A program made the position numbers and the translations under genes. The notes beneath the pieces were generated by a model. It was not told the DNA's origin and did not search any database. It worked only from the letters and a program-made list of their open reading frames with translations. A stretch of 63,962 nucleotides of DNA, counting the filler, from Octopus bimaculoides (Eukaryota), in the NCBI RefSeq assembly GCF_001194135.2. It is 6 parts of 6 records of this genome, joined end to end, with 100 filler letters (N's around TTAATTAATTAA, not from the genome) between each part and the next. Parts side by side here need not be neighbours in the genome. Positions count along the whole stretch, not along the records: positions 1 to 19,625 come from NC_068994.1; positions 19,726 to 34,341 come from NC_068983.1; positions 34,442 to 40,227 come from NW_026433310.1; positions 40,328 to 58,353 come from NC_068986.1; positions 58,454 to 62,469 come from NC_068996.1; positions 62,570 to 63,962 come from NC_068997.1. One strand, 5' to 3'. Shown piece by piece: positions 7,499 to 63,795 of this stretch. Numbering within the stretch: the first letter of the stretch is position 1; the number at the start of each line of letters is the position of its first letter.

Positions 7499-7754
7499 TA
7501 AGGAATGAAGAAAACGCATGTTATAATTGCATACTTTATTCCTATATATGTTTCAAAGGATTACAACCTGTGTGATCCATAGGGATCTGTGATATTAAAA
7601 TTGTAACCTTCTCTTCAGGGAATGCATGAGAATCATCTTAAACGTAATACAATTTTAATATCACAGATCCCTATGGATCACACAGGTTGTAATCCTTTGA
7701 AACATATATAGGAATAAAGTATGCAATTATAACGTGCGTTTTCTCCATTCCTTA
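7499..7754. repeat. Near-perfect inverted duplication: 107-bp arms, 42-nt spacer
   Basis: 7499-7605 against 7648-7754, with 2 mismatches. Confidence 0.97.
7520..7627 (-). ncRNA. Candidate minimal hammerhead ribozyme (type I, PLE-like)
   Basis: AUUCC-CUGAAGA-[GAAGGUUACAA...UUGUAAUCCUUU]-GAAA-CAUAUA-UA-GGAAU. Stem I is 5 bp, stem II about 11 bp, stem III near-palindromic with a C:A mismatch. Confidence 0.6.
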
Positions 7755-8844
7755 AATTTTTAAATATACTCAAATACCCAAAATTTCAAGGAGTTCCTGC
7801 CTTAAAAACAGGAACTACACCACAGTTATTTTGTGTTCTTTGCTACATTGGTTTCTATTAACCTATTTNNNNNNNNNNNNNNNNNNNNNNNNNNNNNNNN
7901 NNNNNNNNNNNNNNNNNNNNNNNNNNNNNNNNNNNNNNNNNNNNNNNNNNNNNNNNNNNNNNNNNNNNNNNNNNNNNNNNNNNNNNNNNNNNNNNNNNNN
8001 NNNNNNNNNNNNNNNNNNNNNNNNNNNNNNNNNNNNNNNNNNNNNNNNNNNNNNNNNNNNNNNNNNNNNNNNNNNNNNNNNNNNNNNNNNNNNNNNNNNN
8101 NNNNNNNNNNNNNNNNNNNNNNNNNNNNNNNNNNNNNNNNNNNNNNNNNNNNNNNNNNNNNNNNNNNNNNNNNNNNNTGTGTGTGTGTGTGTGTGTGTGT
8201 TTGTGTGTCTGTGTTTGTCCCCCCAACATTGCTTGACAAACGATGCTGGTGTGTTTATGTCCCCCGTAACTTAGCAGTTCGGCAAAAAAGACTGATAGAA
8301 TAAGTACCAGGCTTACAAAGAATAAGTCTTGGGGTCGATTTGCTCGACTAAAGGTGGTGCTCCAGCATGACAACAGTCAAATGACTGAAACAAGTAAAAG
8401 AGTATATACATCATCATCATCATCATCATCATATAATGACCGCCCAACCATGCTGACATGGTTGGGCGGTTTGACAGGTGCTGGCAAGCTGGGGAGCAAC
8501 ACCTGGCTCCAATTGTCCATTTTGGCAAAGTTACTACATCTGGATGCCCTTCAGGTGACACCAACACTGGTACTTTTTACACGGCACCAGCATGAGTGCT
8601 TTTTATGTGGAACTAGCATGGATGTTTTTTTTTACCTGGCACCAATACAGGTGCTTTTTATGTGGTACTAGCACAGGTGCTTTTTTTCGGTGCACCAGTA
8701 CAAGTGCCCTATTATGGATTAAAAGTGCTCAGCAGTAATTGAGATAATTATAAACATGTTAGTTACTCCTTCAAATATAGTTCAAATCGAAGGGCCCTCT
8801 TTCAGATGGATGTATGTATGCATTTTTGATGTAGATGCATCGAA

Positions 8845-9340
8845 AGCAAGTGAAATCGAAATTGAGTTAAATTCGACGACTGGCACCCATGCCAACGTCA
8901 TCTCCTTCATTGGACACGAAACTCAGCTTGCGAAGACTTATTGGGGCAAGCGAAAGTGAAATCAGTTTGGCACCTGTGCCCAGCGTCGCCTTTCTGGCAC
9001 TTGTGCTCGCGGCATGTGTAAGGACTATCGAGTGAGATCGTTGCCAGTGCCCCTGGACTGGCTCTTGTGCGGGTGGCACACAAAATACACCATTTTGAGC
9101 GTGGCCGTTGCCAGTACTGCCTGACTGGCCTTCGTGCCGGTGGCACGTAAAAGCACCCACTACACTCTCTGAGTGGTTGGCGTTAGGAAGGGCATCCAGC
9201 TGTAGAAACTCTGCCAAATCAGATTGGAGCCTGGTGTAGCCATCTGGTTTCACCAGTCCTCAGTCAAATCGTCCAACCTATGCTAGCATGGAAGGCGGAC
9301 GTTAAACGACAATGATGATGATGATGATGATGATGATGAT
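8845..9340 (+). mobile_element. RTE LINE 3' UTR copy with (GAT)n tail
   Basis: Shares the ggcgttaggaagggcatccagctgtagaaactctgcc...gcggacgttaaacgatgatgat end with 304-1193. Confidence 0.85.
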
Positions 9341-10254
9341 ATCTTCTCAGAGATATTTGATCAGGTTAATAAGTTATAAATATATCAATATTATATATAT
9401 TCATTAGTTAATTTTATGTCGATTTTTTTCATGCTTGCATGGATTGGACAATATATCATTCATGTGTTGTTTTACAGCTGAATGCCCTTCCTGTCACTAA
9501 CTCTTATTTGTTTTTTAAGCAAAGGATCTCTTATCTCGTACTTCTATGAAGGAGTGAAGCAAGTCGACAAGTTGTTGACAAGAAGAGAGATAAAAACAAC
9601 ACTCTGTAATAACTGTCACGGAAGGCATATGTAAACAAACACATGGACACACACACAATGTATATGTGAACTGGCTTTCCATCGATTACAACGACAAGTG
9701 TTCCACTTGATCCAATTAATTGAACAGCCTACTCGTGATATTAACATGCAAATGGCTGAGCACTCCACAGACATGAGTACCCTTAATGTAGTTTGCAGGG
9801 AGATTCAGAGTGACACAGAATGTGACAAGGCTGACTCTTCTGAATTACAGATGTAACTCAACTGTACCATCTGAGTGGATTGGAGCAACGTGAATTACAA
9901 TGTGTTGCTCACAACCTTACAATTGCCCAAAACACTAAGCCATGCACCTTCACATGTATATGTATTTATGCATATAAACACAACAGGCTTCATCCAATTT
10001 TCATTTACCAAATTCATCTACAAGGTTTTGGCTCTGGTTGATGTGGGGCTATAGAGGAAGACACCAGCCCAAGGTGCAGCACAGTGGGATTGAACTCAAA
10101 ACCACATGGTTGGTAAGTAAACTTCTTAACCACATTGCTACACAACACACAAACAATACAGACACACACACACACACAAACACGAGCACACATGGTGTAA
10201 TTAATATTGTTGATATGAACAAAAATTAAAGCACCCAGTATTTAGAAATTTATA

Positions 10255-61265: not shown

Positions 61266-61624
61266 TAACTCGAATTTAATTATTTTCCCTTATGCCTTTA
61301 CTTCAGGTGTTCTGAATTTTGAAAAGAATATAAATGTACTGCAAATTAAAATAAGTATGCCTTAGACGCTAATCTTTCACACACAGACATACACATGCAC
61401 ACCCACAAACATACACTCACACACACACACAGAGATCCACATAGGCACAAAGACATACACATACGTACACATGCACACATACGAATACAGACACACACAC
61501 GTGGAAATTCACGTAATCATTTACTTATTACTGACCATATATTTAATAATCATGTTAACGTTTCTTTATCGATCTCTATTTGACATTCTCCTCTATTTCC
61601 CTTCCTTTTATTTTTCCTTTTCAG

Positions 61625-61892
61625 GCGGATGTTTCCCCCCTACAAGGTCCGTGTATCAGGGCTGGATAAACGAGCAAAATACATTCTCCTTATGGATATT
61701 GTTGCAGTAGACGATTGCAGGTATAAATTTCATAATAGTCGTTGGATGGTCGCAGGAAAAGCGGACCCAGAAATGCCGAAACGGATGTATATTCATCCAG
61801 ATTCTCCCAGTACTGGTGAACAGTGGATGCAAAAAGTAGTATCATTCCACAAGCTAAAACTGACCAATAATATTTCAGACAAACATGGTTTT
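61625..61892 (+). CDS. Tbx2/3: Internal coding exon of a T-box transcription factor, Tbx2/3 (omb) subfamily; encodes most of the T-box DNA-binding domain
   Basis: Translation (R)[89 protein letters not shown] matches the TBX2/TBX3/omb T-box. Pyrimidine tract plus tttcAG acceptor at 61623-61624 (phase 2). GTAAGT donor at 61893 (phase 0), directly after KHGF, where vertebrate TBX2/3 also have an intron. Confidence 0.96.
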
Positions 61893-62569
61893 GTAAGTAT
61901 ATAACTCTTAAGTGTTTTTTTCTACGCTTTTATTTGATATAACTTGTTCTCATCACGAAATGTTTATACACACATTCACAGATACTTGTTTACACATTCA
62001 CACAAGCGCGCACTACACACGCACACGCACACGCACACACACACATACATACATACATACATAAATACATACATACATACACACCGTAGTTGGTGACGAA
62101 AGATATGTAACTGATCTAAAAGTCATTAAAAGGAAAACTGCGGAATTTTCTAAAAAAAACTTGATTGGAAAAAAAGTTTCTTATTCATATCCGGTTTCTC
62201 TATGAATGCAAAAATAATTGAGGATGAATTTCACACTGGATGGATAAAATGATTATATTTCCTATAATATTTCATAAAAGTAGAATTTCAAAAGTGCTCA
62301 ACAAGCAGTTTTTGATCTCAGTATCGTGGATCAGCATTACAAGTACTTAATTAATAAACTTTTTAATTGAAAACTTTTGAAAGGAAAAGTAGATCAAAGA
62401 TTGACCAACGAAAACGGAACCTGTTTGTGGTAGTAGCAGCTGATTTTTTTTTTTTTTTTTTTTTTTTTTNNNNNNNNNNNNNNNNNNNNNNNNNNNNNNN
62501 NNNNNNNNNNNNNTTAATTAATTAANNNNNNNNNNNNNNNNNNNNNNNNNNNNNNNNNNNNNNNNNNNN

Positions 62570-63795
62570 ATTGGCTTTATGTTTAAGTCTAAATGAAGAA
62601 AAATGGTTATATAATCGTTGTTTAAGGTTGATTGTGCAACCAACATAAATGTAATTATTAGTTGGAGTAGTTACTGTACATTTATAGACTACATTACGGG
62701 TTAAACAACGGCCAGATACCGGACAGTGGGCTTTAATTCTACAATTGCAATTAAGGGGTTTATTAGCTATATATATATTGCTATGTTGATTATTGATACA
62801 AGTATCTAAATTAGTTACATCAATATTGCTGGTTGTATTATTAGATATGCAATTGATATTGTTTGAGCTTGGAAGATTTATCTCCTCAACTATGTTAACA
62901 GTTGAAGTATTAATATGTTCATTAACATGTGCATGATTATTGGTTGTGTTGGTGTTATTAATAGTTTGGTAGTTATTCGTATTGTTATCAATAATAAGAC
63001 AATTTTTTTGTTTTCAAGGGTCCTAGCTAGTTCAATGTTTTTTCTATTTAACTTATTGATAATAGATCCTATGTTGGGGAGAGTAGAGTATGAGATACGG
63101 ATTGTGTGTTGAGAGAAGATTTTATAATATCTATGGTTAGGGTCGACATTTTTTTGTAAGATATCCATAAACTTCTTATAGATGTTTGTAGATACTGCAT
63201 AGTTGTAAGGGATGTTAAGCCATATAGAATTTTTTCTTCTAAATTTGTAATATGAAGGGGGTTTGTGGTTATCATAAGTATTTGGGGTTATATTATTGTT
63301 TCTATTATCATTAGTAGTTTTGTTATTAGGATCTATTTTGTTATGTAAAGTAATTTTCCTATTTTCATTTTTATGGTCATTATTATAATTTCTTAAGCTA
63401 GGTATTTTATTGGTGTTAAAATGGTTGTGTAGGCATTTATCAGGTTGTATTACATTTTTATTCCTATTGTTTAAGCAGGATAGGTTATTATTAGTAGGTC
63501 TTTTCTTACCATTATTTACGATAATTAAATTTTTATTATTGGTAACTTTATTTAGGATAATTAGATTATTGTTATTAGTATCATTATCATTATTGTTACT
63601 ATCACATTTAATAGATTTAGGAATAAGGAAAGAAATTGTTTGGTCATATCCCGCTCTCGATAAAGCTTCATTGTAATAATGAGAATTAGGTTTAAAGATG
63701 TCGTGGTTTGAGGACAGTTTAGTTAATCTATCGGAAATGTTTTTTACAATAGATTTTAAAATATTTGGGGGGTGATTCGATGATCTATTTCGTTC
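62570..63795 (-). mobile_element. Penelope-like retroelement fragment: RT C-terminal/linker region plus GIY-YIG endonuclease, 5'-truncated, cut on the other side by a gap
   Basis: ORF 62890-63819 has the PLE motifs SNHPPxIxKxI..RL..LSSN..IF....YxxALxxxGY and IWxNxPY..VxTNI...F...HRYYKIFxxxTIRISYSxxPN. My translation of a second frame (62749 down to 62570) gives CNCRIKAHCPVSGRCLTRNVVYKCTVTTPTNNYIYVGCTINLKQRLYNHFSSFR, a Cys cluster plus VVY..YVG..R..H GIY-YIG motif. Confidence 0.9.

Follow-up and report, generated by a model that had tools for sequence, protein, structure and literature searches.

Hammerhead-bearing repeats and a PLE fragment in the octopus window

We analysed a 63,962-nt stretch of Octopus bimaculoides DNA (the window), which holds short repeats with minimal hammerhead motifs, many of them folded back on themselves, and the remains of a PLE. 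Family A forms a head-to-head foldback (7496-7757) whose arms, 7496-7605 and 7648-7757, are identical at 107 of 110 positions and whose left end sits in a short TA run. The left (-) arm carries the whole hammerhead and the right (+) arm begins within stem II. This hammerhead (7538-7623, -) reads CUGAAGA at 7618(-), with GAAA at 7554, a 57-nt stem II region and GAAA-CAUAUA-UA; its stem III is CAUAUA, and pair 15.2-16.2 is broken in both arms. Family D is likewise a head-to-head foldback (42629-42917), flanked by two (TA)n runs, with hammerheads at 42749-42823 (+) and 42644-42718 (-) that read CUGACGA at 42761 (+) and 42706 (-). Both D arms start ~20 nt 5' of the core, and the right arm is ~67 nt longer than the left, apparently a tail, judging from this single copy.

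Family B is represented by a 5'-truncated copy (34021-34222, +) whose minimal hammerhead (34088-34124, +) has no stem III loop, a bulged A and a G10.1-C11.1 pair. Its core is CUGUUGA at 34093, with stem II GAGC/GCUC and GAAA-CG-UC. All four readings of the family that were seen have U at core position 6; such U6 variants may already be listed in Lunse et al. 2017. Loose 3' ends of the family (34200-34222) mostly enter (TA)n, and a minority reaches at least 34341. The B repeat may follow a PLE ORF end. Peptides translated from its upstream loose end match none of the 173 proteins of our PLE search, and an exact 25-letter B motif gave zero matches in metagenome or prokaryote contigs. The relative B' (57600-57775, +) shares 77.5% identity with B across 129 nt. 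Its hammerhead (57635-57671), with core CUGUGGA at 57639, has decayed, stem II included; a tail-to-tail palindrome (57692-57775) lies 3' of the hammerhead and excludes it. The near-perfect inverted duplications described in the sequence-only reading are present in A (107/110), D (118/132 including flanking TA) and B' (41/42).

The family C copy (38500-38768, +; 5' boundary approximate, 3' end at (TA)n) is not inverted. Its hammerhead, at 38519-38567 near the 5' end, reads CCGAUGA at 38523 (a U4C core) and GAAA-CAGCUG-UA, and the stem III CAGCUG is palindromic. In cofolding, two copies pair through it (-28.5 vs -15.4 kcal/mol).

Beyond the families already proposed, we found hammerheads in F, G and H. 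The head-to-head foldback of F (33437-34010; arms 33521-33695 and 33847-34003, 137/157) has (TA)n on either side and arms that differ by 13% plus an indel; the left arm extends ~84 nt further in the 3' direction than the right, and other copies read through this extension at 33519-33520. The F hammerhead (33550-33633, -) reads CUGAUAA in the window copy, whereas most copies read CUGAUGA: 33624 T>C occurs in 96536 of 99545 (X1) and, in RNA, in 33/35, 41/41, 37/37 and 28/29. Like B, the F family is highly abundant. The family majority at 33553 (A>G) also restores a stem I pair, among the 40 of 180 variant rows listed. We drew no RNA editing signal from these reads, since every class of change increases in RNA and many loci contribute reads. 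Same-strand joints of F have variable pivots (33591>33805, 33596>33765, 33616>33984, 33620>33789 and 33674>33806, in contigs at single-locus depth); opposite-strand joints at 33634-33637 were left out of the foldback count because there the reference is the inverted repeat itself.

In the head-to-head foldback of G (18392-18551) both arms are truncated within stem II, and the right arm ends in a one-sided tail of ~27 nt (18525-18551), which the copy at 54870 shares at its 3' end, and then (TA)n. That solo copy (54870-54995, -) reads GGC-CUGAUGU-7-bp stem II-GAAA-CAUACG-UA-GUC, with A9 changed. H, a relative of G (41790-41919), holds a palindrome (41870-41917) whose pivot lies ~12 nt 5' of each arm's CUGAAGA; its left arm is decayed and its right arm is cut by an N gap.

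The PLE fragment (62570-63795, -) is dead and 5'-truncated, retaining the RT thumb region, an Asn-rich linker, a cysteine-rich linker motif (C18, C20, C26 and C32 conserved) and GIY-YIG, with a frameshift near 63000. The sequence-only reading had assigned it a GIY-YIG domain, and PF01541 matches above cut-off (E 2.8e-6). It is 89% identical to a protein that has a YRDD reverse-transcriptase motif and the source label Octopus bimaculoides. Its 3' end is lost in the gap at 62470-62569, so the fragment lacks a hammerhead of its own. In searches by tblastn with 173 proteins and by an EN/C-terminus profile, PLE coding sequence came up in the window at 62570-63800 only, and no PLE peptide similarity was found beside any hammerhead family. 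None of the 120 matches listed, of 937 in a further protein search, is a full PLE with an octopus label.

Chance controls and related endonuclease loci

The motifs of the families proposed earlier were all found in place, and most window copies deviate from the core. Measured against C3UGANGA9, G12AAA and U16.1-H17, D is complete, A is complete except for pair 15.2-16.2, and the F family majority is complete; the departures are U4C in C, U6 in B and B', and A9U in the G copy. D is the one window copy with a canonical core, and that core is predicted by folding to be buried in its own hairpin. Stems I and II with a palindromic or absent stem III fit A, B, C and F, D needs one bulge, and B' is decayed.

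A first descriptor matched 4 loci, where shuffles gave 0.88 on average (maximum 4 in 200 shuffles); one of its matches, at 6287-6342, is likely chance. Its strict form matched 2 loci (shuffle mean 0.065; 2 of 200 shuffles reached 2). A relaxed descriptor, composed after the motifs had been seen, matched 4 loci (A, F, B and C) against a mean of 0.27 (maximum 2 in 150). D, with a bulged C in stem II, and B' escape both descriptors. A further candidate, E (57380-57535), could not be fitted to a type I fold. A covariance model built from outside PLE hammerheads alone detected C (E 0.003) and D (E 2.5), of which C alone is significant, and gave no match at E<=10 to A, B, B', F or G. An Rfam scan of the window contained no hammerhead among the 150 of 166 matches listed, which are microRNA- and snoRNA-type hairpins only, below gathering score; region 33400-39000 has 3 matches of the same kinds, none a hammerhead. 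The covariation score of outside PLE loci (91.6% paired vs 70.4%) is circular, because rows were selected on stem criteria: the set (A3) comprises 22 of 33 descriptor matches, from outside loci picked by the same descriptor rather than from octopus families.

In 25 of 79 loci with relatives of the window GIY-YIG domain, a sense minimal hammerhead lies 490-713 nt downstream (shuffle mean 0.01). The 79 loci include near-duplicates and may come from outside octopus. Among loci with at least 700 nt downstream, 21 of 58 have one. The downstream zone contains 0 antisense hammerheads, and the 4 antisense matches all lie 5' of the endonuclease. Where related ORFs reach their natural end, the hammerhead stands ~70-290 nt past the stop. 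Two of the 25 hammerheads have the CCGA core of family C, and two of the loci (L007 and L014) have inverted arms of 97% and 95%. In BLAST, the window families and the 79 loci share one 24-nt match (E 0.012).

Origin of the foldbacks

Foldbacks with hammerhead halves are head-to-head, 3' ends outward, in five of five cases (A, D, F, G and H). The one-sided tails of G and F are both backed by other copies, and most repeat ends adjoin (TA)n. We consider it probable that the repeats come from several EN+ PLE families, whose 3' ends (pseudo-LTR regions) they would be after 5' truncation, and that the hairpins are the usual head-to-head insertion products of these elements. The PLE origin claimed by the sequence-only reading is thereby well supported, though indirectly, by the insertion architecture and by the hammerheads behind related endonucleases. 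Each family would descend from an ORF-bearing PLE. The copies may be non-autonomous, as the sequence-only reading proposed; their 5' ends vary in the manner of truncated copies.

Insertion may proceed as follows. The PLE protein would nick AT-rich DNA such as (TA)n, and reverse transcription would begin inside the PLE RNA, tens to ~200 nt 3' of the hammerhead; an early stop of copying would leave a 5'-truncated copy. A second, inverted copy would then be placed against the 5' end, often from a different internal start, giving one arm a tail. The hammerhead would be carried along because it lies within the 3' terminal repeat. Its cleavage would need a dimer of two sense copies, whether in tandem or in trans. 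A transcript running through a foldback would yield long dsRNA with the core buried. Long dsRNA had been proposed before, and fold prediction supports it for foldback read-through.

Some observations run against the PLE-end reading. Neither the peptide searches of the window nor BLAST against the 79 loci joined any family to an ORF. The extensions of F (~84 nt) and D (~67 nt) exceed the typical 30-40 nt, and the B' palindrome is tail-to-tail. Significance with the outside model is confined to C, and no convincing non-TA target-site duplication was found in the window, where (TA)n obscures the ends.

A different account, which we regard as rather unlikely, makes B, and perhaps F, dedicated non-autonomous PLE parasites of a few hundred bases, dispersed from masters of their own and mobilised in trans by PLE protein. 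Non-autonomous derivatives of PLEs are known, MRC1 for example (PMC8557442; bioRxiv 10.64898/2026.07.22.740005), and the abundance of B fits: its summed contig depth, which is not a copy number, is 2.3-3.2 million against 50-60 in single-locus contigs, suggesting roughly 10^4-10^5 copies. In F, moreover, the 200 nt or more retained 5' of the core show no PLE peptide similarity. However, the 5' ends of B vary (34021; about the equivalent of 34065 in B') and many RNA reads (533 and 681) continue upstream in shared sequence, as truncation predicts. Since the hammerheads of related ORFs stand just past the stop, short copies would lack an ORF anyway.

The sequence-only reading also called the system retrozyme-like. 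That the repeats are non-LTR retrozymes, whose tandem hammerhead units self-cleave, circularise and reinsert, is very improbable. B is present in RNA runs, one head-to-tail joint of B (34218>34052, depth 54.7) occurs, singly, among the joints listed, and two C copies can pair through stem III. Yet the window has no tandem copies of any family, the B core has U6, and RNA first mates of B fall almost evenly on the two strands (1189/1143 and 1154/985, in standard RNA-seq libraries that may be unstranded). No pile of read starts was found at the cleavage site, 34120, which in fragmented libraries is weak evidence.

It is equally hard to credit that the palindromes are MITEs of a TA-targeting DNA transposon, assembly artefacts or chance motifs. 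TA flanks are compatible with Tc1/mariner targets, and the window has fragments that we take to be pogo- and mariner-like; the near-identical arms of A and B' could suggest misassembly. But the arms are unequal, the pivots variable and solo copies exist (B, C and G at 54870), a pattern other than the fixed, equal terminal inverted repeats of a MITE or the fixed ends with transposase-type duplications named in the sequence-only reading as refuting it. Moreover, the F arms have diverged, the F family restores the canonical core, and motif counts exceed those of shuffles.

The proposal that inversion joins two half-ribozymes into an active one has almost no chance of being right and found no point in its favour: the inverted arm is antisense sequence. 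Neither strand of any foldback carries more than a single CUGANGA and a single GAAAC; GAAAC is fully paired in the hairpin (for A, D and F, its predicted chance of being unpaired is 0.00 on either strand), and dimers require two sense copies.

Comparison with known elements

Under the PLE-end reading, the octopus repeats are likely genomic debris of a familiar sort, PLE ends inserted head to head. EN+ PLE insertions are described as an inverted 5'-truncated copy with a 30-40 bp tail and a microsatellite bias (PMC8557442), and head-to-head palindromes as the most frequent (Arkhipova et al. 2013, PMC3846280). The window shares with them the head-to-head truncated copy, the one-sided tail, the palindromic junction and AT-rich or microsatellite targets, and its PLE resembles those of Adineta vaga in the Asn-rich insert that separates RT from EN (PMC8557442, PMC3846280). 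Unlike those described, the octopus units are ORF-less stubs, with two extensions beyond 30-40 nt.

The minimal hammerheads of metazoan PLEs are reported to be mostly solo and in some cases to lie on opposite strands at a spacing of 100-700 bp (Cervera and De la Pena 2014, PMC4209133). The octopus families resemble these type I motifs in the base bulged after A9, G10.1-C11.1, the palindromic or absent stem III, and the occurrence of several families per genome, mainly solo with some opposite-strand pairs. The results and discussion of that paper neither name octopus nor list the U6 of B.

The Poseidon element of Anolis, PAc, offers a biochemical parallel in its AT-rich cutting, in internal RT starts that account for the tail, and in RNA-seq reads without ends at the cleavage site (Frangieh et al. 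2024, PMC11167929). For PAc the biochemistry has been shown, whereas the octopus families are known here from sequence. The window PLE differs in its cysteine-rich linker of Neptune/Nematis type.

PAc hammerhead mutants still insert in vitro (PMC11167929). Should the U6 core of B turn out to be shared by the whole family and inactive, B would match in vivo this in vitro result, in which cleavage is dispensable for insertion. B might even be a very abundant PLE-dependent element whose master has a crippled U6 hammerhead, which would be natural evidence that PLE mobilisation keeps the fold rather than catalysis, and it might give rise to many dsRNA-forming inversions in a heavily RNA-editing animal; we think this unlikely. 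As ordinary PLE debris, the repeats matter for annotation. PLEs make up 6.83% of an O. vulgaris assembly and comprise 190 families there (PMC13282606 supplement), and the hammerhead may identify as PLE ends some of the short repeats now classed as SINE or unknown.

Animal non-LTR retrozymes, for which an origin in PLE terminal repeats has been proposed, likewise carry a type I hammerhead in short ORF-less repeats, with monomers common (PMC7229834; bioRxiv 10.64898/2026.07.22.740005). Their defining features there are units in tandem, canonical hammerheads and circular RNA, whereas the octopus copies are solo or inverted and their hammerheads minimal.

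Hammerhead motifs in the window

The hammerhead features are real. All five motifs of the sequence-only reading were found: family A (7520-7627, minus strand) reads CUGAAGA...GAAA-CAUAUA-UA with pair 15.2-16.2 broken; family B (34088-34124, plus) reads CUGUUGA-A-GAGC/GCUC-GAAA-CG-UC; its relative B' (57635-57671, plus; 77.5% identity over 129 nt in window self-comparison) has CUGUGGA and a decayed stem II; family C (38519-38567, plus) reads CCGAUGA...GAAA-CAGCUG-UA; and family D (42748-42811) carries CUGACGA on each of both strands. Self-comparison of the window revealed additional foldbacks: family F (33437-34010), family G (18392-18524, with a solo copy at 54870-54995, minus strand) and the G-related family H (41790-41919). 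The window copy of F has the core CUGAUAA; most family copies aligned from contigs and RNA reads have CUGAUGA with stem I restored, T>C at 33624 occurring in 96536/99545 (contig set X1) and in 33/35, 41/41, 37/37 and 28/29 RNA reads.

A loose descriptor matched 4 window loci where shuffles averaged 0.88 (maximum 4 in 200), and its strict form 2 against 0.065 (2/200 shuffles reached 2). A relaxed descriptor, composed after the motifs had been seen, matched 4 against 0.27 (maximum 2 in 150); none of the three caught D or B' in the window scan. A covariance model built from 22 hammerheads of outside Penelope-like elements (PLEs) recovered C at E 0.003 and D at E 2.5, the remaining families being absent from its window list at E<=10, and hammerhead was not among the matches listed in an Rfam search of the window. 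Because of these results, the C hammerhead is secure on its own score, F is secured through its family copies, and the other, putative assignments rest on architecture.

A half-site common to A and G has 6 window matches at <=1 mismatch (0.76 expected), including one at 39375 assigned to no family, and a common 17-nt 3' motif has 2 (0.02 expected); both counts are generous because the patterns derive from these same copies. The 17-nt motif is 3'-terminal (7743-7759 in A and 18530-18546 in G, 16/17 identical) and could be a putative RT start signal. H carries a looser match to it, and the short arm of A ends within it. A candidate, E (57380-57535, minus), has GAAAC 5' of CUGAUGA; a short hairpin comes next, and GAAA is missing downstream. 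E adjoins (TA)n, is placed back to back with B', and may be a permuted motif or one more PLE end in decay.

Foldbacks, flanks and copies

In the A, D, F, G and H foldbacks the arms are joined at their 5' ends, 3' ends outward. Arms start ~20 nt 5' of the core in D (both arms), ~12 nt in H, and inside stem II in one arm of A and both of G. The right arm of G is ~27 nt longer, its extension matching the end of the solo copy; the left arm of F is ~84 nt longer, with the junction read through in other copies; and the right arm of D runs ~67 nt further before (TA)n, as seen in one copy only. The B' palindrome is an exception, being tail-to-tail, 41/42 identical and 3' of the hammerhead. TA runs lie on both sides of D and F and on at least one side of A, C and G; no convincing duplication other than TA was found at the flanks of these elements in the window.

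Other repeats lie in the window. An AT-rich, MITE-like element without a hammerhead (26787-27656) has ~185-nt inverted ends (159/183), and inverted repeats without cores occur at 46617-47094 (75%), 50117-50176 (90%) and 13469-13514 (83%). Decayed DNA transposase frames at 36214-36729 and 55414-55900 are, as we take their motifs, pogo-like and mariner-like. Family C starts just past one copy of an abundant repeat (305-1193, 37370-38485 and many shorter copies), whose longer copies, judging by their translation, presumably correspond to an RTE-type LINE at its 3' end.

Drawing on 3 studies, we aligned 33400-34341 to two sets of DNA contigs and to ~6% of each of two raw RNA runs. Summed depth, which differs from copy number, reached 2.3-3.2 million in B and at most 0.45 million in F; single-locus contigs stand at 50-60. 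Same-strand F joints, among those listed, include 33591>33805, 33596>33765, 33616>33984, 33620>33789 and 33674>33806; their pivots differ, marking inversions that recur and end at varying positions. Most B ends fall at 34200-34222 in (TA)n, ~100 nt beyond the cleavage site, and one of the B joints listed is head-to-tail. Upstream of the window B copy, 533 and 681 RNA reads run into common sequence. First mates over B split about equally between strands, and read starts did not pile up at 34120 in the two RNA runs, whose libraries are poor for ends. Both window copies of B have U at core position 6, as do the two loose-end consensuses (from 19 and 15 contigs), and the 40 variant rows listed, out of 180, contain no replacement. 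This U6 core is the one lead that we single out among these families.

Link to Penelope-like endonucleases

As the earlier reading had it, 62570-63795 (minus) encodes a GIY-YIG endonuclease domain; it is accompanied by a cysteine linker that is conserved and by a spacer rich in Asn. Over 42% of the upstream frame, identity reaches 89% to a YRDD-containing protein that carries the label Octopus bimaculoides. The spacer lies at 62890-63400, and in databases copies of it bear the names of unrelated host proteins (P0004, P0005). This copy is truncated, frameshifted and interrupted by an N gap, and therefore not attributable to any hammerhead family; protein-to-window comparison found no PLE coding similarity beside any window hammerhead.

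We examined 79 outside loci, from the best 80 of 191 confirmed matches in metagenome contigs; they contain near-duplicates, and the host may be other than octopus. A sense minimal hammerhead lies 490-713 nt past the endonuclease match in 25/79 (shuffles, 0.01), and a sense hammerhead occurs in 21/58 having >=700 nt downstream. Antisense hammerheads were absent from that zone across the 79 loci, all 4 antisense matches being upstream of the endonuclease. Some inverted repeat is present in 23/79, with arms 97% and 95% identical in L007 and L014. In L031 (630-2992) two sense hammerheads, 2362 nt apart, enclose the match to the endonuclease; this is likely a complete pLTR-ORF-pLTR unit. No real DNA similarity was found between these loci and the window families. 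That the window repeats are truncated PLE ends is, in our judgment, a probable reading.

Origin of the foldbacks and comparison with described systems

The proposal that inversion unites two half-ribozymes did not hold in predicted folds: each strand of each foldback holds at most one core pair, and in A, D and F every base of GAAAC is paired. Inversion is therefore predicted to give long dsRNA on read-through, as had also been suggested, and cannot provide a partner ribozyme. Two sense C copies pair through CAGCUG in predicted cofolding, which is consistent with the dimer model. Under the truncated-PLE reading, the most likely history is that AT-rich DNA would be nicked, RT would start internally, copying would be truncated early and a second copy would be placed inverted.

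As ribozymes, the octopus families have probably not been described: among the papers listed for octopus or cephalopod hammerheads, none describes them, though they may be covered by Lunse et al. 2017, the bioRxiv supplements or repeat libraries, and the word hammerhead is absent from the supplement to the O. vulgaris repeat paper. Giant squid has a reported count of 235 hammerheads (PMC6962438). A change at A6 is reported to reduce hammerhead activity, and U4C to be still viable in a viroid (PMC3088659). Retrozymes are defined through tandem units (PMC7229834; bioRxiv 10.64898/2026.07.22.740005). The window repeats fit a known architecture. PMC4209133 reports minimal hammerheads that stand solo as well as pairs on opposite strands, 100-700 bp apart, and PMC11167929 an internal RT start, with cleavage dispensable in vitro. 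Head-to-head palindromes and Asn-rich inserts are described in PMC3846280, and the window spacer resembles that described for Adineta vaga Penelope elements. A PLE inverted 5'-truncated copy with a 30-40 bp tail and microsatellite bias is reported in PMC8557442; against that tail, the one in G measures ~27 nt and the extensions of F and D ~84 and ~67 nt.
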